DNA from: Acidimicrobiales bacterium
GTDB lineage: Bacteria > Actinomycetota > Acidimicrobiia > Acidimicrobiales > SZUA-35
DNA length: 61,182 nucleotides
Assembly: GCA_024638805.1 (NCBI GenBank)
Contig: JAHEJO010000002.1
Location: 1 to 61,182, forward strand
Direction of reading: 5' to 3'
The translations under genes were made by a program, and so were the position numbers. Below the pieces are notes generated by a model, which worked only from the letters and a program-made list of their open reading frames with translations, had not been told where the DNA came from and searched no databases. Shown piece after piece: positions 2,635 to 40,217 of this stretch. The number at the start of each line of letters is the position of its first letter. The stretch's first letter is position 1.

Positions 2635-5073
2635 TCAGAAGGGGTCGTCGTCTCCCAGAGAGACTCGTAAGAGAGCGACTGCGCCCCACCGGTCGAGCGG
2701 TTCGTTGCCGTTTCCGCATTTCGGGGACTGGACACAACTCGGGCATCCGTTCGTGCAGGTGCATGCCTCGACAAGGTCGGCGGAGGCGATCATCAGTTCT
2801 TCGGCCCGGGAGAAGGCGAGTTCGGCGATGCCTGCCCCGCCGGGGTATCCGTCGTAGATGAACACCGCGGGTAGACCGCTGCTGGGCGAGCGAGGGATCG
2901 ATACGCCGCCGACATCCCATCGATCGCAGATGGCAAACAGGGGGAGCATCCCGATCGCCGCATGCTCGGCGGCGTGCAGCGAGCCGGGAACGGCGAAAGG
3001 CCTTATGCCGGCACGTTGCAGAACCGAGACTTCCCACTCCCACCAGACCGCGGTCGTCTCGAGGCTCTGAGGCGGGAGATCGAGCTCGGTGATCTCCGCG
3101 GTGCCCTGGGTCCCGGGGCTGGCCGATCCGTACTCCTGATAGCCGGTGACGGTGGTCGTGACGCATACGGAGCCAAAATGCAGCATGGACCGACCGAGGG
3201 TCGTGCGTCGCATGACGTCGGTGACCGCGATGTCCACCCGAGAACGGGCCGAGGTCCAACGCTGTGAATCGTCGGGTTCAACCACCGCTCGCCGAGCGTC
3301 GAGGTCCAGATTCGTCACCCGGTAGTTACGGCCCAGGTGCATGTAGAGCGCCCCGGTGTGCACCATTGACGGCGCCCTGGCCTTCTCAACCGTCCCGATC
3401 GGCGTCCCGTGGACATCCACGATCTTCACTTCACCACCCGACGCCGAGCGAAGGCCGATTCGGGTGAACGGCACACCTCGGCCGGTCCACAGCGCCTCGG
3501 GCAGTCGGGTCTCGTCGGTTCGAATCGTCAGCTCGTCACCCCCGACGAGTCGGCGGATTCCGTCGTCGAGTTCAGGCCACCAGGACCCGTCGTTCGGATT
3601 CAGCGGTGACTCGTAGGCCGCGCAGCAGAGGTGGGGGTCGAGGACGTGGGGGTTGGTGACGTTGATGACCGCCGGCTCGGGAGGACGATCGAAGAGATGA
3701 TGGGGGTTCTGCACAAACCACTGGTCCATCTGGTTCTCACCTGCGATCACGACAGCAAGGGAATCTTCGGCCGCCCGCCCGACCCGTCCGATCTGCTGCC
3801 ACAACGACGCAATCGTTCCGGGAAACCCGCAGAGGATGGTGGCATCGAGACCACCGATGTCGACGCCGAGCTCCAAGGCGCTGGTGGCGACGACGACCCG
3901 CACGACCCCCGAGGCGAGCTCTTCTTCGATCTCCCTGCGTTCGGGTGGCAGATACCCGCTGCGATACGAACGAATCGAGTCCGAGAGGGTCGGCGCGACC
4001 GCTCGTCTGATCCCGGATGCGACCCTTTCTGTCATCGCCCGGCTCGGGCAGAAGATGATCGTCCGTCTGCCGGCTTCGGCCAACTCAGCACCCAGCCGGA
4101 TCGCCTCGGTTGCCGGTGACTGGCGCTTGCCTTTCTCGGCATCGATGGTGGCCGGCTGAACGAGGGCGATCGTGCGTTGTGCGCGCGGCGACCCGTCGGC
4201 GCCAATCGCGTCGACCGTTCCGGCGATCAGTTGTCCGGCCAGCTGCTCTGGTTCGCCGATCGTCGCACTGGTGAAGACGAACCGGGGGTGGGATCCGTAC
4301 AGCTCTGCGATTCGTTGAACGCGTCGGAGGAGATGGGCGACGTGTGTGCCGAAGATGCCACGTAGAACATGGAGCTCATCGATGACCACGAACTCGAGGC
4401 GGGTGAAAAACCTCGCCCACCGCCGATGCTGGGGGAGGATGCCGTTGTGAACCATCTCGGGGTTGGTGAGGATCACGTTGGCGTTGTTCCTCAGCCAGCG
4501 GCGGTCGTCGGTGTCGGCGTCACCGTCGTAGGCGCCGGCGATCAGCCCCGGAACCGCCAGTTGGCCCAGGGATCGAAGCTGGTCCCGGGCGAGCGCTTTG
4601 GTGGGATAGATGAGCAATGAGGTTGAAGCTCTCAGGCCGCTGACGATCGATTCTGCGATCGGAAGCTGGTAACACAGCGACTTTCCGCTGGAGGTCCCCG
4701 TGGCGATGACAACCGAGCGCCCATCGCGCACACGGTTGATCGCATCGGCCTGGTGCTTCCACAAGCCGCCGGTGGGGGAGCAGTGCTGGATCGGCTCCGG
4801 CAGCGGATCGTGCAGTTCTCCGAGGCTGAACCGCTGGGCGGGGATGACGCGGTGATGGACCAGTCGACCGTCCGAGGCGAGTGCATCGAGGATCGTCGAC
4901 AGGGGGCGTGCTCCGGGGATGGGTTCGACGGGCGGTGCCGGCCCGACGGCTGCGAGGGTCACCTGAGCATCGTCGCGTCGGCCCCCGGTCGACCGCCGGC
5001 GTCGCCGCCGTGTGCGCGGCACGTATGTCGCCTCGAGCTCCCCGGGGGGAAAGGGCAGTGTCGGAGTCCGCAC
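2635..5073 (-). CDS. DEAD/DEAH-box helicase with C-terminal DUF1998/MZB zinc domain (MrfA/YprA, Rv3649-like)
   Basis: 812 aa. Motif I ATGTSSGKS, motif II VIDELH, motif III TSATI. C-terminal Cys cluster CTCTNGCPSCVQSPKCGNGNEPLD. Same neighbourhood (tad locus to topA) as Rv3649. Confidence 0.9.
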   Translation of the reverse strand: MRTPTLPFPPGELEATYVPRTRRRRRRSTGGRRDDAQVTLAAVGPAPPVEPIPGARPLSTILDALASDGRLVHHRVIPAQRFSLGELHDPLPEPIQHCSPTGGLWKHQADAINRVRDGRSVVIATGTSSGKSLCYQLPIAESIVSGLRASTSLLIYPTKALARDQLRSLGQLAVPGLIAGAYDGDADTDDRRWLRNNANVILTNPEMVHNGILPQHRRWARFFTRLEFVVIDELHVLRGIFGTHVAHLLRRVQRIAELYGSHPRFVFTSATIGEPEQLAGQLIAGTVDAIGADGSPRAQRTIALVQPATIDAEKGKRQSPATEAIRLGAELAEAGRRTIIFCPSRAMTERVASGIRRAVAPTLSDSIRSYRSGYLPPERREIEEELASGVVRVVVATSALELGVDIGGLDATILCGFPGTIASLWQQIGRVGRAAEDSLAVVIAGENQMDQWFVQNPHHLFDRPPEPAVINVTNPHVLDPHLCCAAYESPLNPNDGSWWPELDDGIRRLVGGDELTIRTDETRLPEALWTGRGVPFTRIGLRSASGGEVKIVDVHGTPIGTVEKARAPSMVHTGALYMHLGRNYRVTNLDLDARRAVVEPDDSQRWTSARSRVDIAVTDVMRRTTLGRSMLHFGSVCVTTTVTGYQEYGSASPGTQGTAEITELDLPPQSLETTAVWWEWEVSVLQRAGIRPFAVPGSLHAAEHAAIGMLPLFAICDRWDVGGVSIPRSPSSGLPAVFIYDGYPGGAGIAELAFSRAEELMIASADLVEACTCTNGCPSCVQSPKCGNGNEPLDRWGAVALLRVSLGDDDPF

Positions 5074-5123
5074 CCTCCCAGGCTAGGACGGTCCATCGAC
5101 GCGATGTCGATCGCCGCCGCTCT

Positions 5124-5744
5124 TCAGCGAAGGTGGGCGTCGGTCAACACGGGCCACGGCACGAGACCAGGTCGCCGGATGCGACGTTGTTCGTCCACGT
5201 CGAAACCTGCGTTCTCGAGGATCGCGCGGAGTTGGGCCGGAGGGGTGGCACGGATCGCCCTTCCGGCCACGGAGGTCAACCGTTCGAGCGCAAACGAGCC
5301 CGGACCGGTGATCGTGGCGATCGATGCGATCAGCAACCTGCCCCCCGGTCGGAGTATCTCTGCGAGTTCGGCAGCTGCGGTGCGCTGATCGGGATACCAG
5401 TGGAACGACTCGGTGCACGTGACGACGTCGACGCTCCCCGGTCGGATCGGCACTCGCATCGCGTCCGCCCGCAGCAGGGTGTGATCCTCCGTCGATCCGG
5501 CTCGGCGGAGCATGCCCGGTGAGAAGTCGAGCCCGATCACCCTGGATTGGGGATGGCTGTCCCTCAGCCGGCGGATCAGCTGCCCCGTTCCGCACCCGAG
5601 GTCGACCACGACGGAGAATCGATGACCCTCGAGCCGCTCGATGATCACATCGTGGACCGGCGTGTAGGCGGCGGCCTGAAGAGTTTCACCGTCGTAGGTG
5701 TTCGACCATCGGTCGAACAGAGACGTCGATCGGCTTCCGGGCAT
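5124..5744 (-). CDS. Class I SAM-dependent methyltransferase (small-molecule UbiE/Methyltransf_11-like)
   Basis: 206 aa with motif I VVDLGCGTGQL, post-I IGLDFSPGML and RPGGRLLI. No DNA-methyltransferase DPPY/NPPY-type motif seen. Confidence 0.85.
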   Translation of the reverse strand: MPGSRSTSLFDRWSNTYDGETLQAAAYTPVHDVIIERLEGHRFSVVVDLGCGTGQLIRRLRDSHPQSRVIGLDFSPGMLRRAGSTEDHTLLRADAMRVPIRPGSVDVVTCTESFHWYPDQRTAAAELAEILRPGGRLLIASIATITGPGSFALERLTSVAGRAIRATPPAQLRAILENAGFDVDEQRRIRRPGLVPWPVLTDAHLR

Positions 5745-5775
5745 CGACCCACGCTAGAGCGCCTCGGGTGTCGAC

Positions 5776-6654
5776 GTGATGCGGGCCTTCGGCTCGGCTT
5801 CGAGGGTCCGCCGAATGACCGTCGCCGGGCGGGAAGATACTACGACCATGACCACCACCGGCCCTCCTCTCACGACCGGAGAACAATCGATTCTGATCGC
5901 CAAGGTGGAGCGACTGTGGCGTAAAGCTCGCTCCTCCACGTTTCCGGCCGAGGCCCGCGCCTTCGAAGAGAAGGCGATGTACCTGATGGCCCGGGCGCGC
6001 ATCACCGACGCGATGCTCGATCTGAGCGGTGACCCCGGCCAGATCGTCGACGCCAAGATCGGCGCAGCGCTGCACGGTGGCTACCGCGTCCCGTCCGAGA
6101 CGATCTTCAGTGAGGTCTGCAATGCCTTCGGGTGCAGGGGGTACCTCTACCTGAGTGGCCGCACCAGTCAGCCGGCTGCGGTCGGGTTCTCCTCCGACAT
6201 CGATCGAGTCAGAGTTCTCTGGCCGCTGTTGCACACTGACGCGCTCCGGTCGGCGACCGAACTTCGGGGACGCACGGCGGCACAGACCTCGGCGTTGCGT
6301 CGCTCCTCGATGTACGGCTACGCCGAGGCGATCGCCGAGCGCTTCGCAGCGATCAACACGGTTGCGTCCAGCGATGCCGATCGAGGAGTGGACCAGAGCG
6401 ACAGCGACGATCCGCCGAACCTCGACGGGACGGCCGGTCACGCGTCGGGTTGCCGGTCGGAATCGGCTCTGATCGTGTCGAGCCGCCTGAAGCAGGTCGA
6501 CGATTACTTCGACGAGATGGACATCTCGCGCCGGTCCCGTCGCGTGAGCGGAGGTGCGGGTGGTCACGCCCACGGTCGAGCGGCAGGAATGGCTGCAGAC
6601 CTCACCGGTGGTTCAACGAAGTTGCGCTCGGGCCGACGCGAGCTTGCTGGATGA
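5776..6654 (+). CDS. DUF2786-like protein
   Basis: The N-terminal helix IAKVERLWRKARSSTFPAEARAFEEKAMYLMARARI matches the DUF2786 signature (KI..LLA.A.ST.EAEA). Start is uncertain (ATG 5776, 5815 or 5848). The stop overlaps the next gene (ATGA). Confidence 0.7.
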   Translation: MMRAFGSASRVRRMTVAGREDTTTMTTTGPPLTTGEQSILIAKVERLWRKARSSTFPAEARAFEEKAMYLMARARITDAMLDLSGDPGQIVDAKIGAALHGGYRVPSETIFSEVCNAFGCRGYLYLSGRTSQPAAVGFSSDIDRVRVLWPLLHTDALRSATELRGRTAAQTSALRRSSMYGYAEAIAERFAAINTVASSDADRGVDQSDSDDPPNLDGTAGHASGCRSESALIVSSRLKQVDDYFDEMDISRRSRRVSGGAGGHAHGRAAGMAADLTGGSTKLRSGRRELAG

Positions 6655-7235
6655 GCACGACGGCTCAGCGTGACGTCGACCGCCGACAGGTCTATCGAGC
6701 CGAGGAACTTGCTGCGGAACTGACCATTCTGGACGAGCGGAGGTCGTTGGCCGAGCTGGTGGCGATCGCCGAGCGGCTGCGGTCCGGGTGGTGGTGGCAG
6801 GCACACTTCGGCACCCGAGGGATCGAGGTGAGGACGAACCGCAGTCGCCTCGGTAGCTATTGGAATCCGACCACACGGATCGTGAGCCTGTGTCCTTCGG
6901 CATCGGATCTGTCCACGCTCTGCCACGAGCTGGCCCATGTCGCAGCCACCGATTGGGGACGATCCACCGGGCCACCCCACGGGCCGATGTTTCGAACCTT
7001 GCATGTGGGCGTCCGCCACGCCCTGCTCGGTCAGCGTGCGGGTGACGATCTCGCCGAGGTCTACACCCAGTTCGGCCTGCCACTCCACCGCTTCTCGAGC
7101 GCGATCCACGATCGGCCTGCCTGGGCCGAAACCGCCCTCGATCCCGCCGAGTACACAGCTGAACGCATCGTGAGGGTCGACCGTTTCGACCAGCGGCCGT
7201 CGGGTTCGATTCGTCCGGGTCCAATCGCCCTGTAG
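6651..7235 (+). CDS. SprT/Spartan-like zinc metalloprotease
   Basis: 194 aa. CHELAHV (HExxH) is followed 13 residues later by PHGPMFRTLH. This is the same arrangement as HEMIH...GHGPEF in SprT/Spartan proteases. ATG 6651 overlaps the upstream stop. Confidence 0.65.
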   Translation: MSTTAQRDVDRRQVYRAEELAAELTILDERRSLAELVAIAERLRSGWWWQAHFGTRGIEVRTNRSRLGSYWNPTTRIVSLCPSASDLSTLCHELAHVAATDWGRSTGPPHGPMFRTLHVGVRHALLGQRAGDDLAEVYTQFGLPLHRFSSAIHDRPAWAETALDPAEYTAERIVRVDRFDQRPSGSIRPGPIAL

Positions 7236-7261
7236 GGGCGGCGGGTGGGTCATGATGGGAC

Positions 7262-8506
7262 GTGATGAGCTCGTTGCTCCCCACACCAGAGCCCGATCGC
7301 GACGCGGTCCTCGCTTTCGTGGGTCATCACCTCGCCGGTCTGTACTCAGGCCCTCTGACCGGATCCCACGCATTCGTGGGGGGCCAGAGCCACGCCGACG
7401 CGGCCCTGGCCCGGTTCGACGTCACGGGCTACGCGAACAACCGCAACGAGGTCTGGCCCGCACCGAGACGGGGTGCTTCGGGCCTGTCGCCCTACATCCG
7501 TCACGGTTACCTCCAGCTGTCGCGGGTCTGGAACCACGTGTCCGGCCCGGACGAGGATGTCGCCCGATTTCGTGAAGAACTCATGTGGCAGGAGTACGCC
7601 CGACATTGGTATGCCCGTCTCGGGGGCCGATCTGCGACCAGTGTGCGCAACGATCTGGCGGGGTCGGCCTCGGGAGCAGGGCGGTGGGACAGGTCGATGG
7701 CCTGCCTGGACATGTGCGTCGAAGAGCTGGAGGACGACGGCTGGTTGGTCAACCAGGCCAGGATGTGGCTCGCCTCCCACTGGTCGGTGCGCCAGGGCGG
7801 TCGCTGGGTCGACGGTGAAGACGAGTTCTTCATCCACCTGCTCGATGGCTCGCGTGCGGCAAACCGGCTCGGCTGGCAGTGGACGACCGGCGCCGGCTCG
7901 TCGAAGACGTATGGGTTCAGCCGCTGGCAGGTGGAGAAACGGGCGCCTGGCCTGTGCGGGCAGTGCGACCGCTCGGCCGACTGCCCGATCGAGCATTGGC
8001 CCTCGGACCCCGAGCTCATCAAACTGGAGCCCGAACCCCTGCTGCGCCGCACGATAGATCCGATCGCCGAAGCCGGACCGCACCAAACCGAACGATCCGC
8101 CGACCCTGAGATCGTCTGGTTGACGGGCGAGTCACTGGGGGATGACGACCCGGTTCTGCGAGCCCATCCCGATCTGCCGGTGGTCTTCGTCTTCGATGAG
8201 CCACTGCTCCGACGGCTGGCCCTGTCCGCCAAACGTCTGGTGTTCCTGACCGAGGGCCTGGCCGAACTTGCTGTGGAACGCCCGGTCGAACTACACCGGT
8301 CCCGACCCGGCGTCGCCCTGGCCGGACGGGCTGCCGCGGTCACGTTCGCGCCGGTGCCCGGTTTCCGCAGGCTGCTCGAGCGCCGTGCCGATCCGGTCCA
8401 CGTGGCGGAGTTGCATCCCTACCCTTGGCTTCGGCGTCCCACCGGTGGGACCGTGTCATCGTTTTCGGCCTGGCGGCAACGGGTGAGCGAGCCGGCCGGT
8501 GTCTGA
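7262..8506 (+). CDS. Photolyase/cryptochrome-family FAD-binding protein with atypical domain order
   Basis: Residues ~10-240 align by eye to the photolyase FAD domain (GLSPYIRHGYLQLSRV, ELMWQEYARH, GWLVNQARMWLASHW, LLDGSRAANRLGWQWTTGAGS). Residues ~283-385 (EIVWLTGESLGDDDPVL...PVVFVFDEPLL) resemble the normally N-terminal alpha/beta domain. Confidence 0.8.
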   Translation: MMSSLLPTPEPDRDAVLAFVGHHLAGLYSGPLTGSHAFVGGQSHADAALARFDVTGYANNRNEVWPAPRRGASGLSPYIRHGYLQLSRVWNHVSGPDEDVARFREELMWQEYARHWYARLGGRSATSVRNDLAGSASGAGRWDRSMACLDMCVEELEDDGWLVNQARMWLASHWSVRQGGRWVDGEDEFFIHLLDGSRAANRLGWQWTTGAGSSKTYGFSRWQVEKRAPGLCGQCDRSADCPIEHWPSDPELIKLEPEPLLRRTIDPIAEAGPHQTERSADPEIVWLTGESLGDDDPVLRAHPDLPVVFVFDEPLLRRLALSAKRLVFLTEGLAELAVERPVELHRSRPGVALAGRAAAVTFAPVPGFRRLLERRADPVHVAELHPYPWLRRPTGGTVSSFSAWRQRVSEPAGV

Positions 8507-8927
8507 GCGCCTGCCCATGATCCGGATCGAGATCCCGTCGACGTTCGAACTCGTCAACGTCGTGCGGATGACGATCCTCAACGCGGTGGAGTCCAGCGGC
8601 ACCCTGACCGGAACCCGTTTGGACGACCTGCGGCTGGCGACGTCCGAAGCCGTCACCAATGCCATCCAAGCGAACCTGGCGAACGACCCGGGCCAACGCG
8701 TCGAGATCCGGTGCGAGCTGGAACCGGGTCTGGTCAAGCTCCAGATCACCGATTTCGGTGTCGGCATCCTGAGCCCCGAGAAGCTGCTCCCGCCGCTCTC
8801 GGACCCATCGCGATTGCACACCGAAGGGGGCTTCGGGCTGCCGTTGATACGTTCGCTGAGCAGAGACGGTGTCGAGTTCACGGACAACTCGCCCGGCACG
8901 ACGGTCACGATCTGGATGTCCCAATAA
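8499..8927 (+). CDS. RsbW/SpoIIAB-like anti-sigma factor serine kinase (HATPase_c)
   Basis: 142 aa with Bergerat-fold motifs: N box SEAVTNAI, G1 DFGVG, G2 GGFGLPLIRS. GTG 8499 overlaps the photolyase-like stop by 8 nt (alt ATG 8517). Confidence 0.75.
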   Translation: MSERLPMIRIEIPSTFELVNVVRMTILNAVESSGTLTGTRLDDLRLATSEAVTNAIQANLANDPGQRVEIRCELEPGLVKLQITDFGVGILSPEKLLPPLSDPSRLHTEGGFGLPLIRSLSRDGVEFTDNSPGTTVTIWMSQ

Positions 8928-9044
8928 AAGAATCGCCCTAACGCTCCGATCGGGCTTGCCACTAGTCTGTGTCAGGCCCGTCCGGTGTACGGCGTTGACC
9001 GGGTGAGCTCCTGAAGTCCCTGATTTGTCGCCAGCGAGTGATCG

Positions 9045-10448
9045 ATGTCAGCACACCACAGTCTTCCGATTCGAGATGAGGCCTTCACCGGCAGCGATCA
9101 CGTCATCGCCCGTGGCGTCGTTCGCCCTGTGGCCACTTTCCTTCGACGGGAGACCGCAGCGGGCGTCCTGCTGATCCTGTCGACAGCCGTCGCATTGATC
9201 TGGGCCAATGTGGACATCGAGAGCTACCACCACTTGTGGGAGACCGAGATCGCACTGAAGATCGGCGATTTCGAGCTGACCGAACCGCTCGAAGCCTGGG
9301 TCAACGACGCATTGATGGCGCTGTTCTTCTTCGTGGTCGGTATGGAGATCAAATCCGAACTCGTGCTCGGGGACCTTCGCAACCCTCGAATCGCGGCTCT
9401 ACCTGCGATCGGCGCGCTCGGTGGGATGATCGTGCCGGCCGCCCTCTACTTCGCGCTCAACACCAGCAGTCCGGAGTCGACCGGTTGGGGAATCCCGATG
9501 GCGACCGACATCGCATTCGCCGTCGGCGTCCTGGCCCTGGTCGGGAACCACGTACCCAAACAGCTGTCCCTGTTCCTGCTCACGCTGGCGATCGTCGACG
9601 ACATCGGAGCGATCGCCGTCATTGCGATCTTCTACACCTCGAACCTTCACCTCGACTGGTTGGCCTGGGCGGTAGCCGGACTCCTACTCGTCTTCACACT
9701 GCAGAGGATGCGGGTGTGGTTCGTCCCGGTGTACTCGGTGATCGGCATGTTCGTCTGGTTCGCCACGTTCGAGTCCGGCGTCCACGCCACGATCGCCGGC
9801 GTGGCTCTCGGACTGCTCACGCCCGCCCGCCCGCTGTTGTCGAGCGAAGAGAAATTGGAGTTCGACGCCGCCGACTTCACCAGCTCGGCCAAGGCCCGGG
9901 ACGCTCGCTTCCAGGTGAGGGAGCGGGTTGGGGTGACGTCCCGTCTCATCACCGTCCTCAGTCCGTTCACCAGCTACATCGTCATTCCGATCTTCGCCTT
10001 GGCAAACGCCGGGATTCTGCTCAGCGGCGATGTCGTCAACGATGCCCTTTCCAGTTCGGTCACACTCGGAATCGTGATGGGTCTGGTCATCGGCAAGCCG
10101 CTCGGGATCTATGCATTCGCGCTCGTCGGGATCCGTTCGGGAATCGCAACCCTGCCACCCGCTCTCAAGAAGACGCACATCCTGGGCGCGGGTGCGGTGG
10201 CCGGTATCGGATTCACCGTCGCGCTGTTCATCAACGGGTTGGCCTTCACCGGGCCCGAGCTCGAAGGAATCAAGGACCAGGCAACGATCGGCATCCTCGC
10301 CGCCAGCCTGCTGGCCACGATTGTAGGTTTCGTGATCCTGAGATTGACCGGGGCCGCTCACGAGGGGACACCCGAGGGTGATCTGATCGCCACGATGGTC
10401 GACGCCGACGCCGATGGCACCCCCGATCTCGAGGTGATCAAGCGCTGA
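9045..10448 (+). CDS. nhaA: Na+/H+ antiporter NhaA
   Basis: 467 aa polytopic membrane protein. Has [19 protein letters not shown] (NhaA DD motif) and typical NhaA N-terminal segments. Confidence 0.9.
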
Positions 10449-10521
10449 GATTCCTGCCCTGCCGGGTTCTTGCTCGGTGGCGGCAGCGTTTTGGTGTCGG
10501 CGCTCTCTAGAGTCTGGTCTC

Positions 10522-13293
10522 GTGACCCACTCCCTCGTCATCGTCGAATCTCCCGCCAAAGCCAAGAAGATCGGGGAGTATTTGGGTTCGGCCTACGTCG
10601 TGGAGTCCTCGATCGGGCACGTCCGGGACCTGCCCCGGAACGCCGGAGACGTGCCGGCCGCCTATAGGGGCGAGAAGTGGGCTCGGATGGGTGTCGACGT
10701 CGACAACGACTTCAAGGCGCTGTACGTCACCAATCCCGACAAGAAAGGCCACGTGCGGCATCTGAAGTCGCTCCTGAAGGAAGCGGACGAACTGGTTCTG
10801 GCCACCGATAAGGACCGCGAGGGTGAGGCGATCGCATGGCATCTCCTCGAGATCCTGAACCCCAAGGTCCCGGTGAAGCGGATCGTTTTCAACGAGGTGA
10901 CCAAGGAGGCGATCCAGCGTGCGCTGGACCAGCCGGGTGAGCTGAACCTCAAGGTCGTCGAGGCGCAGGAGGCCCGTCGTCTTCTCGACCGGCTCTACGG
11001 CTATGAGGTGTCGCCGGTTCTGTGGCGAAAGGTGCAGCAGGGTCTCTCGGCCGGGCGGGTCCAGTCCGTGGCCACGCGGATAGTGGTCGAACGCGAACGC
11101 GAGCGCATGGCGTTCGTCTCGGCCAACTACTGGGATCTCATCGCCACGTTCACCGCGGCCAAGAGCGATCGACCTTTCACGGCCAAGATCTTTGCGCTCG
11201 ATGACGCCCGGGTTGCCGGCGGCAAGGATTTCGATTCCACCGGCCAACTCAAGGCGGCCAGGACCGGGCTGGTCCACCTCGATCAGGCTGCGGCGACAAC
11301 GCTGGCGTCGAGCGTCGAGGGTCGGACGGCGATCGTGGAGAGCCGCGAGGCCAAGCCCTACCGCCGCCGCCCTGCGCCGCCGTTCATCACCTCCACCTAT
11401 CAACAGGAGGCTGGACGCAAGCTACGGTTGTCGTCGGCCAACGCCATGCGGGTGGCCCAGGGTCTGTACGAGCGTGGCTACATCACCTACATGCGAACCG
11501 ACAGCACAACGTTGTCGGAGCAGGCGCTGAACGCGTCCCGGAGCCAGATCTCGCATCGCTACGGCGCCGAGTTCGTTCCCGACCTGCCCCGGGTCTACAA
11601 GGGGAAGTCGAAGAACGCTCAGGAGGCCCACGAAGCGATCCGACCGGCCGGGGATCGGTTCCACACCCCCGAGGAGGTTGCCGGTGAGTTGAGCACCCAG
11701 GACCTACGGGTCTATGAGCTGATCTGGCAGCGCACCGTTGCCTCCCAGATGACCGATGCAACGGGCGAAACGGTGACGATCCGGCTCGGCGTCGACACCA
11801 CCGAAGGCAGGCACGCAACGTTCTCGACGAGCGGCACGACGATCCGCCACCAGGGTTTTTTGAAGGTGTATCACGAAGATGTCGACGAGGACGACCAGAG
11901 CGACGACGTCGAGGAGCAGGAGTTGCCTCCGCTGAACGAGGGCGAGTCGGCGACGGTGCGTTCCGCCGAAGCGGAAGGCCACGACACCCAACCACCGGCC
12001 CGCTACACCGAAGCGTCACTCGTCAAGAAACTCGAAGAGCTCGAAGTCGGCAGACCCTCGACCTACGCCAGCATCATGCGCACGATCCAAGACCGCGAAT
12101 ACGTCTGGAAACGAGGTTCGGCCCTGGTCCCCAGTTTCAAAGCGTTCGCCGTCGTGACCCTCCTCGAGGAACATTTTCCGGATCTTGTCGACTACGCCTT
12201 CACCGCCGAGATGGAGAACGATCTCGACGAGATCGCGCTCGGCGGCGAGGAACGGGTGCCCTGGCTCACGCGGTTCTACTTCGGAGCTGACGACGACCCC
12301 GGGTTGAAGGCGAAGGTGAGCGATCGGCTCGACCGGATCGATGCCCGGGCGGTCAATTCCATCCCGATCGGCGTCGACCCCGAAGGCCAGGCGATCGTCG
12401 CCCGCGTCGGTCGCTACGGACCGTACTTGGAGCGGGGCGAGGCCCGTGCGTCGATCCCCAACGACATCCTGCCCGATGAACTCACCGTCGAACGAGCGCT
12501 CGAACTCATCAACGCCCCACAGGGCGACCGGGAGTTGGGGACACATCCCCAGACCGGTCAGCCGATCTTCGTCAAGAACGGGCGCTTCGGCCCGTATGTG
12601 CAACTGGGAGAGCGCGACGAGGAGGCCGGTATCAAGCCCAAGATGGAGTCGCTGTTCAAGACCATGGACCCCGACACCGTGACCCTCGAGCAGGCCCTCG
12701 AGCTTCTCAGCCTCCCGAGGGTCGTCGGCGTGGACGAACTCGGGCAGGAGATCCTGGCCCGCAATGGTCGCTACGGCCCCTACATCGGTCGCACCGTGAT
12801 CGACGGCGACAAAGAAAAGGCCGACAGTCGCAGTCTCGAGACCGAGAAACAGCTGTTCACGATCAGCGAGCCGGAGGCCCGGGCACTGTTCGCGCAACCG
12901 AAACGACGTCGCGGGCAGCAGGCGGCCAAGCCTGGCGTGCCCGTGGGCATCGACCCCGCGACCGACAAACCGATGGAGCTGAAGGAGGGCCGATTCGGTC
13001 CCTATGTCACCGATGGCGCAACGAACGCCAGCCTCCGCAAAGGTGATGATCCCGAGACGATCACGATCGAACGGGCATCGGAGTTGCTCGCCGACCGTCG
13101 AGCGGCCGGTCCGGCCAAGAAACGAAAGAAGGCGGCGAAGAAGAAGAAAACCGCCACCAAGAAGGTAAACGCTCAGAAATCGCCGGCCAAGAAGTCGGCG
13201 AGCAAGAAGTCGCCGAAGAAAGCGGCGGCGAAGAAGGCTGCGAAGCGCCGAGTCGACGATGCGCCGGTCGCCCCGGCTGAGGATCCGTTCTAG
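10522..13293 (+). CDS. topA: DNA topoisomerase I
   Basis: GTG 10522 gives VTHSLVIVESPAKAKKI (Toprim). Active-site region YITYMRTDS. Four C-terminal GR(F/Y)GPY repeats and a Lys-rich tail, as in actinobacterial TopA. Confidence 0.95.
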   Translation: MTHSLVIVESPAKAKKIGEYLGSAYVVESSIGHVRDLPRNAGDVPAAYRGEKWARMGVDVDNDFKALYVTNPDKKGHVRHLKSLLKEADELVLATDKDREGEAIAWHLLEILNPKVPVKRIVFNEVTKEAIQRALDQPGELNLKVVEAQEARRLLDRLYGYEVSPVLWRKVQQGLSAGRVQSVATRIVVERERERMAFVSANYWDLIATFTAAKSDRPFTAKIFALDDARVAGGKDFDSTGQLKAARTGLVHLDQAAATTLASSVEGRTAIVESREAKPYRRRPAPPFITSTYQQEAGRKLRLSSANAMRVAQGLYERGYITYMRTDSTTLSEQALNASRSQISHRYGAEFVPDLPRVYKGKSKNAQEAHEAIRPAGDRFHTPEEVAGELSTQDLRVYELIWQRTVASQMTDATGETVTIRLGVDTTEGRHATFSTSGTTIRHQGFLKVYHEDVDEDDQSDDVEEQELPPLNEGESATVRSAEAEGHDTQPPARYTEASLVKKLEELEVGRPSTYASIMRTIQDREYVWKRGSALVPSFKAFAVVTLLEEHFPDLVDYAFTAEMENDLDEIALGGEERVPWLTRFYFGADDDPGLKAKVSDRLDRIDARAVNSIPIGVDPEGQAIVARVGRYGPYLERGEARASIPNDILPDELTVERALELINAPQGDRELGTHPQTGQPIFVKNGRFGPYVQLGERDEEAGIKPKMESLFKTMDPDTVTLEQALELLSLPRVVGVDELGQEILARNGRYGPYIGRTVIDGDKEKADSRSLETEKQLFTISEPEARALFAQPKRRRGQQAAKPGVPVGIDPATDKPMELKEGRFGPYVTDGATNASLRKGDDPETITIERASELLADRRAAGPAKKRKKAAKKKKTATKKVNAQKSPAKKSASKKSPKKAAAKKAAKRRVDDAPVAPAEDPF

Positions 13294-14948: not shown

Positions 14949-14981
14949 ACGCCGACGAGGATTGCTAGCCTCCAGTGTTCG

Positions 14982-15054
14982 GCCCGAATAGCTCAGTTGG
15001 TAGAGCGACGCTCTCGTAAAGCGTAGGTCACGAGTTCAATTCTCGTTTCGGGCT
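14982..15054 (+). tRNA. tRNA-Thr (anticodon CGT)
   Basis: 73-nt cloverleaf folded by hand. Acceptor GCCCGAA/TTCGGGC, D arm GCTC/GAGC, anticodon stem ACGCT/AGCGT with loop CTCGTAA, T arm ACGAG-TTCAATT-CTCGT. CCA is not encoded. Confidence 0.9.
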
Positions 15055-15061
15055 CCCTCGC

Positions 15062-40066: not shown

Positions 40067-40140
40067 GCCCGAATAGCTCAGTTGGCCAGAGCGCTGCTCT
40101 TGTAAAGCAGATGTCGTGGGTTCGAATCCCACTTCGGGCT
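40067..40140 (+). tRNA. tRNA-Thr (anticodon TGT)
   Basis: 74-nt cloverleaf. Acceptor GCCCGAA/TTCGGGC, anticodon stem CTGCT/AGCAG with loop CTTGTAA, T arm GTGGG-TTCGAAT-CCCAC. CCA is not encoded. Confidence 0.9.
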
Positions 40141-40217
40141 CGTTCTGGCGGGGATCCATGCACCCGCGGTGACCGGTGTGCCGCCCCATCCCCCGACGGG
40201 GCCCTACCCTCGTTCGG

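Follow-up and report, generated by a model that had tools for sequence, protein, structure and literature searches.

What kind of photolyase carries its catalytic domain first, and what is the domain that follows it? The question is raised by a gene at positions 7262..8506 (plus strand) of the 61,182-nucleotide stretch of DNA analysed here (contig JAHEJO010000002.1 of assembly GCA_024638805.1, hereafter the window), which belongs to an uncultured Acidimicrobiales bacterium from sediment. Our analysis indicates, with a probability of roughly 0.85, that the encoded protein is an iron-sulfur-type member of the NewPHL/SPL class, i.e. a flavoprotein photolyase for cyclobutane pyrimidine dimers (CPDs) with inverted domain order, its cofactors and activity being predicted from homology, a modelled structure and characterised relatives. 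This inverted class has been known since 2020-2021, and the protein is an uncharacterised member of it. A first-pass annotation of the locus had proposed a photolyase/cryptochrome homologue with permuted domain order, which is borne out by searches of Pfam and the PDB, by AlphaFold2 (AF2) modelling, by Foldseek and by a profile of the C-terminal domain (A5). Any novelty that it may have implied does not hold, since the inverted topology had already been published as NewPHL in 2020. We propose the annotation "SPL/NewPHL-type CPD photolyase, Fe-S subgroup" in place of the present "FAD-binding domain-containing protein".

The reading frame, which was listed correctly at the first pass together with the motifs quoted from it, starts with GTG at 7262, ends with a TGA stop at 8504-8506 and encodes 414 amino acids (aa). 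The public gene call begins one codon later, at ATG 7265, and yields a 413-aa protein (P0001, 100% identical at 413 aa). Residue numbers are counted here from GTG 7262; those of the public call, the AF2 model and alignment A1, which start from ATG 7265, are one lower.

The N-terminal part of the protein (aa 1-247; 7262..8002, plus strand) is a catalytic all-alpha domain for binding flavin adenine dinucleotide (FAD), as judged from PF03441, TIGR03556, PDB alignments, the helices of the AF2 model and Foldseek. Homology to the catalytic part of CPD photolyases covers the N-terminal ~245 residues, which equal residues ~205-400 of canonical class I photolyases. Specifically, PF03441 (FAD_binding_7) matched aa 104-216 with an E-value of 1.8e-8, exceeding the family cut-off, the NCBIfam search aligned aa 43-212 with model positions 209-395 of TIGR03556, and in the PDB residues 227-400 of the class I photolyase chains 1owl and 1tez were aligned to aa 56-215 (E 3e-10). 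The class I/III CPD photolyases 1owl, 1tez and 4u63 were matched at E 3e-10 to 2e-9 in the PDB sequence search, and BLASTP against Escherichia coli Phr (taken from NC_000913.3) gave 29% identity over 117 aa of the catalytic domain. The protein is not a canonical class I CPD photolyase: its scores to TIGR03556 and PRK10674 are 37 and 33 bits against equivalog cut-offs of 884.6 and 506, and its domain order is reversed. No antenna-like part is found ahead of the catalytic domain: the first aligned position has just ~35-43 residues before it, and residues 1-245 of the AF2 model are helical and lack an N-terminal sheet. The FAD domain had earlier been placed at about 10 residues from the N-terminus; the model contains a helix as early as aa 12-22, and homology becomes detectable at aa ~35-43. 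When the full protein was searched as a single sequence against Pfam, NCBIfam and the PDB, the FAD domain alone was recognised and the C-terminal part had no match. Similarly, the whole AF2 model retrieved photolyases and cryptochromes in Foldseek over ~210-260 columns, corresponding to the catalytic domain alone, which is expected because a sequential aligner here meets a permutation.

The catalytic domain is followed by a linker (aa 248-280; 8003..8101, plus strand), weakly conserved apart from an AGP motif (A1, A4) and mostly coil in the model, and by a C-terminal domain (aa 281-408; 8102..8485, plus strand) that corresponds to the Z-domain of NewPHL proteins and is assigned a five-stranded alpha/beta fold from its modelled beta-alpha-beta topology, Foldseek, profile A5 and weak matches to PF00875. 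The AF2 model, built from a 59-sequence alignment, shows two domains with a pLDDT (predicted local distance difference test score) of 94.7 and a pTM (predicted template modelling score) of 0.93; it is helical to ~245, and five strands (283-286, 306-311, 341-346, 357-360 and 380-384, model numbering) alternate with helices further on. The pLDDT of aa 281-408 was mostly >90 in the full model and 84.5 when the C-terminal domain was modelled in isolation. In a Foldseek search with the isolated domain the five best among 350,542 PDB chains all belong to the class II CPD photolyase of Methanosarcina mazei, with E-values between 8e-3 and 2.4e-2, TMq values of 0.49-0.56 and alignments of 130-150 columns. 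The Z-domain is kept in the 59 close and about 30 distant homologues (A1, A4). Acidimicrobiia-type Z-domains, that of the window included, are ~8-10 residues shorter than those of other subgroups between the third and fourth strands, where a helix is truncated (A4; aa ~345-360, positions ~8294-8341).

How far the Z-domain can be traced by sequence depends on the depth of the profile: it is undetectable with a single sequence and detectable with a diverse profile. A narrow profile (A2, 33 sequences of ~58% identity) retrieved no photolyase from the PDB, only a spurious match to BCAR1 at E 0.87. Profile A5, composed of 28 Z-domain sequences from an exhaustive search of representatives and including relatives down to ~25% identity, gave 38 matches when run with hmmsearch against all PDB sequences, and 37 of these were photolyases or cryptochromes (best E 1.7e-4; 1tez at 1.3e-3). 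They comprise animal-like CRY, the class I enzymes 1tez and 1owl, mammalian and insect CRY1/2, (6-4) photolyases, CRY-DASH and class II enzymes, and all 37 align in their alpha/beta domain at the N-terminus, at chain residues ~25-145 if the chain begins at the native N-terminus and later in tagged or fused chains. The resemblance of the C-terminal segment to the canonical N-terminal alpha/beta domain, noted at the first pass, is thereby upheld by A5 and Foldseek, so that this domain matches the alpha/beta domain of photolyases both significantly in a profile search and in its predicted fold. The register that had been suggested against E. coli Phr was reproduced by hhalign, which pairs IVWLTGESLG with LVWFRQDLRL of E. 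coli and VVFVFD with the second strand, but it is not significant against a profile of E. coli type only: the Z-domain profiles reached E 0.21 and 0.062 with the N-terminal profile A3 of enterobacterial Phr, a shallow profile, as the word-index search with the 148-aa E. coli fragment from which it was built gave enterobacterial fragments only.

An alternative is that the C-terminal domain is an unrelated Rossmann-like or HUP domain that was recruited independently, in which case the protein would be no permutation but a truncated photolyase that has gained a different cap. The failure of the single sequence and of the narrow profile to give a significant match would fit this, as would the non-significant hhalign result with the E. 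coli Phr profile and the Foldseek E-value of only 8e-3, with USP, PIN and methyltransferase folds also among the structures listed; moreover, Emmerich et al. reported that the predicted order of secondary structure elements in the Z-domain did not match a Rossmann fold (PMC7736829). Against it, PF00875 was weakly matched by 7 of the 33 A2 members (best E 0.023) and is the sole Pfam family to which two or more members matched, the top five structural matches are all photolyases, and published covariation contact maps also resemble the antenna domain (PMC7736829). We therefore consider independent recruitment quite improbable. The Z-domain appears to be a homologue of the N-terminal antenna alpha/beta domain of photolyases and cryptochromes, with statistical support that is borderline to moderate, as judged by profiles and models. 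Because the A5 matches fall in N-terminal antenna domains and class II photolyases come first in Foldseek, we regard the swapped order, with the catalytic FAD domain first and the antenna-domain homologue last, as confirmed at the level of sequence profiles and predicted structure.

The swapped order could also reflect a non-functional fusion, created by chimeric assembly or by rearrangement in the recent past, and a rearrangement at ~8000-8100 had been considered at the first pass. No supporting point was found and the possibility is refuted. Logan contigs from three sediment-metagenome runs (6500-8157, 7877-8348 and 7867-8321) cross 8000-8100 without joints there, conservation extends over both domains, many residues being invariant, and thousands of homologues share the same architecture at 57-69% identity over 97-99% of their length. 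Database searches gave 4372 homologues at E≤1e-3, of which the best 120 are all ~400 aa long and full length, 57-69% identical and aligned over 93-100% of the query; when clusters formed at 50% identity were searched exhaustively, 1691 matched at E≤1e-3, of which 429 passed E≤1e-10 and 78 passed E≤1e-30. In independent GTDB genomes (one genome per species) 589 loci were found, and the best 80 of these are almost all from metagenome-assembled genomes (MAGs) of Acidimicrobiia/Acidimicrobiales and contain no Rhodococcus fascians. The family is abundant in Acidimicrobiia from sediment and water. Divergent relatives (A4) share only ~25-35% identity with the protein and some of them may be of the NewPHL subgroup A kind. 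The closest genomes are uncultured Acidimicrobiales MAGs, and near-identical DNA occurs in sediment metagenome runs. In one family representative of 690 aa (P0385) the C-terminal part is a uracil-DNA glycosylase domain (PF03167, E 9e-17) that contains a GQDPYH motif, a fusion that links the NewPHL/SPL family to DNA repair.

The residues of the active site bear on what the protein might do. The CPD-pocket, FAD-pocket and tryptophan (Trp) residues as well as four cysteines are invariant among the 59 homologues of alignment A1, which answers a check proposed at the first pass. E106 and W109 of the ELMW motif (7577..7588, plus strand) align in BLASTP with E. coli E274 and W277, contacts of the CPD lesion. 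N164-Q165-A166-R167-M168 (7751..7765, plus strand) contains the equivalents of the substrate and FAD contacts N341, R344 and M345. The stretch from D195 to W207 (7844..7882, plus strand), which ends in G204-W205-Q206-W207, supplies parts of the FAD pocket, the proximal Trp and one substrate Trp; its D195, A200, N201, G204, W205 and W207 are E. coli D372, A377, N378, G381, W382 and W384. W182 (7805-7807, plus strand) is E. coli W359. A Trp dyad is kept and the distal Trp is absent, as no Trp aligned at the position of E. coli W306 in the BLASTP alignment to Phr.

The same set is found in RfSPL, a 406-aa protein of R. fascians described by Xu et al. in 2021, who independently named the class SPL (short photolyase-like); NewPHL and SPL are one class (PMC8476157). 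All 20 RfSPL residues named in that study recur in the protein of the window, as judged from published residue numbers, with a constant shift of 7 positions (6 for E112 and W115). The CPD pocket is formed by E112, W115, N171, M175 and W214 in RfSPL and by E106, W109, N164, M168 and W207 here, the FAD pocket by R174, D202, A207, N208 and G211 and by R167, D195, A200, N201 and G204, respectively, and the Trp dyad by W212 and W189 and by W205 and W182. Contacts to the DNA backbone are Q172, R228, Q230 and K233 in RfSPL and Q165, R221, Q223 and K226 here. The cysteines C155, C239, C242 and C248 of RfSPL correspond to C148, C232, C235 and C241, and both proteins have the pattern C-x83-C-x2-C-x5-C.

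These cysteines are candidate ligands of an iron-sulfur cluster. The putative first ligand, Cys148 (7703..7705, plus strand), is invariant in A1, occurs in at least 90% of the diverse set A4, and corresponds to RfSPL C155 and PhrB C350 (PMC8476157). The other three putative ligands, Cys232-x2-Cys235-x5-Cys241, lie in the motif CGQCDRSADC (7955..7984, plus strand) and are likewise invariant in A1. About one third of SPL members (subgroups C and Ac) carry four such cysteines resembling those of FeS-BCP proteins, and RfSPL, assigned to subgroup Ac, contains FAD, iron and acid-labile sulfide (PMC8476157). Because the four conserved cysteines share their spacing with the Fe-S-containing RfSPL, the CGQCDRSADC segment, which had been taken for a linker at the first pass, is a probable Fe-S site that would provide three of the four ligands of the predicted cluster. 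By its four cysteines the protein falls into the Actinobacteria-type Fe-S subgroup. The divergent family members P0348, P0360, P0365 and P0361 lack the C-x2-C-x5-C cysteines (A4), which fits the Fe-S-less subgroups in the literature.

The four-cysteine arrangement is PhrB-like, and PhrB-type structures (5lfa, 4dja, 9q8f) were among the Foldseek matches, which might suggest that the protein is not a CPD photolyase but a relative of FeS-BCP that acts on (6-4) lesions. We consider this very unlikely, as the protein had no match to PF04244 in the Pfam search even at E≤10, its best matches by sequence are CPD photolyases of class I/III, the CPD-type set E/W/N/M/W occupies the active site, and RfSPL repaired CPDs in oligo(dT)16 and left 6-4 photoproducts unrepaired (PMC8476157).

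Homology of both domains, conservation of residues, the predicted fold and the integrity of the assembly are the demonstrated basis on which a mechanism of CPD repair may be proposed. The N-terminal helical domain would bind FAD in the U-shaped conformation within the photolyase pocket, with an R167-D195 salt bridge and N201 placed at N5. Blue or UV-A light would photoreduce the flavin, using a shortened Trp chain from W205 to W182, and would excite the resulting FADH-, from which an electron might pass to a flipped-out CPD held by E106, W109, N164, M168 and W207 so that the dimer is split. Single-stranded DNA (ssDNA) would be the preferred substrate, by analogy with characterised members of the class. 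At the end of the catalytic domain, C148, C232, C235 and C241 could hold a [4Fe-4S] or [3Fe-4S] cluster with a structural or a redox role, much like the cluster of FeS-BCP (6-4) photolyases. The relocated antenna-domain homologue is predicted by the model to pack on the catalytic domain and might seal or cap the FAD site. Binding of FAD and of the Fe-S cluster, activity on CPDs in ssDNA and the sealing role are suggested by the literature and by analogy with characterised relatives.

A different role is suggested by the gene that follows. It encodes an RsbW/SpoIIAB-like anti-sigma factor kinase (HATPase_c_2, 136-142 aa) at 8499..8927 on the plus strand and starts either with GTG 8499, which overlaps the photolyase stop codon by 8 nucleotides, or with ATG 8517, 11 nucleotides after it. 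The protein might accordingly be a light or redox sensor, i.e. a bacterial cryptochrome that relays the state of its FAD and/or Fe-S cluster to the RsbW-like kinase controlling a sigma factor, with vestigial repair. Of 83 related loci, 17 have an RsbW-like gene as the next one downstream of the photolyase, in some of them at a distance of a few hundred bases. The knockout of RfSPL had no significant photoreactivation phenotype, and its authors raise a cryptochrome-like role (PMC8476157). However, ~80% of the related loci (e.g. L003) have no RsbW-like neighbour. Where it occurs, it is always inside a larger syntenic block that also carries the housekeeping genes nhaA and topA, resembling lineage synteny rather than a functional module, and no gene for a STAS partner or a sigma factor adjoins it. 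Signalling cryptochromes and NewCRY have typically lost residues that bind the lesion, among them E274 and N341 (PMC7736829), but the equivalent E106 and N164 are retained here and invariant in the 59 homologues, and the characterised members of the class are active photolyases that repair CPDs (PMC7736829, PMC8476157). As every CPD-binding and FAD-contacting residue is invariant, the idea put forward at the first pass, that the protein may be a sensor and not a repair enzyme, finds no support, and we judge it improbable. Only the kinase gene, being so close to the stop codon, leaves a little room for signalling. It is a long shot that in this Acidimicrobiales lineage the Fe-S NewPHL shares a transcript and is coupled in translation with the RsbW/SpoIIAB-type kinase and gives light or redox input to a partner-switching/sigma pathway, instead of or besides photorepair of ssDNA; if true, such coupling would make the protein a true bacterial cryptochrome of inverted topology.

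Several points weigh against the interpretation as an Fe-S-type CPD photolyase of inverted order. The homology of the Z-domain reaches at best E 1.7e-4 in profile-sequence comparison, 8e-3 in Foldseek and a non-significant 0.062 with hhalign against the E. coli-type profile. The activity of RfSPL was weak and its knockout showed no significant photoreactivation defect (PMC8476157), which leaves the physiological role of the NewPHL/SPL class unsettled. In addition, tblastn with E. coli Phr found no canonical photolyase in the 61-kb window or in the 83 related loci.

Upstream of the photolyase gene lie genes for a DUF2786 protein (5776..6654, plus strand) and for a HExxH SprT-like/Rv0185-like metallohydrolase (TIGR04338; ATG 6651..7235, plus strand), which overlap by ATGA; the second ends 26 nucleotides before the photolyase start. 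The order DUF2786, SprT-like, photolyase and RsbW-like forms a tight string on one strand, and the upstream gene order recurs in four related loci (L001, L002, L004 and L005). The DUF2786 and SprT-like genes are probably in one operon with the photolyase. A scan of 5000-10600 for sigma-70 promoters and terminators gave 0 promoters, and terminators at chance level. Divergent from this string, on the minus strand, are genes for a class I S-adenosylmethionine methyltransferase (5124-5744) and for an MrfA-type DEAD-box helicase of a DNA-repair family with a C-terminal MZB zinc-binding domain (2635-5073), the latter being syntenic in 16 of the 83 loci. Together with the SprT-like metalloprotease, the helicase gives the neighbourhood of the photolyase gene a DNA-repair flavour, which we take as supporting context. 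The housekeeping genes downstream encode the NhaA Na+/H+ antiporter and topoisomerase I (TopA) (9045-13293, plus strand). Two tRNA-Thr genes (CGT and TGT) are located at 14981-15057 and 40067-40141.

The class bears on how photolyases evolved. Both founding papers proposed NewPHL/SPL to be near the ancestor of the superfamily, partly for its seeming lack of an antenna domain (PMC7736829, PMC8476157): Emmerich et al. left the fold of the Z-domain unknown (PMC7736829) and for Xu et al. the C-terminus was an 'extension' that could not be modelled (PMC8476157). A search of the literature available found no solved NewPHL/SPL structure and no later work on the Z-domain fold, and the PDB sequence search gave no close relative. 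Since homology of the Z-domain to the antenna alpha/beta domain can be detected by profile comparison with the PDB and by AF2 and Foldseek, we read the class as a two-domain enzyme with swapped order and not a single-domain precursor. This reading constrains the ancestor hypothesis and argues against a primordial single-domain photolyase. The added value is modest; explicit profile and AF2/Foldseek evidence for the homology of the Z-domain extends a hint in the legend of Fig. 5 of Emmerich et al. (PMC7736829) and is no discovery.

Among the known systems, RfSPL has a comparable length (406 versus 414 aa), comes from the same phylum (Actinomycetota), and has a catalytic domain followed by a C-terminal region of ~150 aa. 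By published residue numbers it also shares the Trp dyad without distal Trp, the CPD-type active site and the cysteine spacing. It differs in belonging to the class Actinomycetes, whereas the protein of the window is from Acidimicrobiia. The NewPHL class was defined by Emmerich et al. in 2020 with the inverted topology of catalytic domain first and Z-domain second, and its members DsNewPHL from Dinoroseobacter shibae and MmNewPHL from Methylobacterium mesophilicum repair CPDs in ssDNA only (PMC7736829). These share with our protein the class, the inverted topology and the conserved CPD active site, but they are alphaproteobacterial and, as members of subgroup A, lack both the four cysteines and an Fe-S cluster. 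Class I/III CPD photolyases (E. coli Phr 1DNP, Synechococcus elongatus 1TEZ/1OWL, Agrobacterium tumefaciens 4U63) have homologues of both domains and identical substrate and FAD residues. Compared with them, the protein of the window has the reversed order, lacks the distal Trp and the long interdomain loop, and carries the Cys-rich, putative Fe-S segment in place of ~60-90 C-terminal residues of the canonical helical domain. The FeS-BCP/CryPro proteins (Agrobacterium fabrum PhrB 4DJA, Rhodobacter sphaeroides CryB) resemble it in Foldseek and in the comparable placement of four cysteines at the end of the catalytic domain. They differ in their canonical domain order, their DMRL (6,7-dimethyl-8-ribityllumazine) antenna, their repair of 6-4 photoproducts and the PF04244 domain that the protein of the window lacks.

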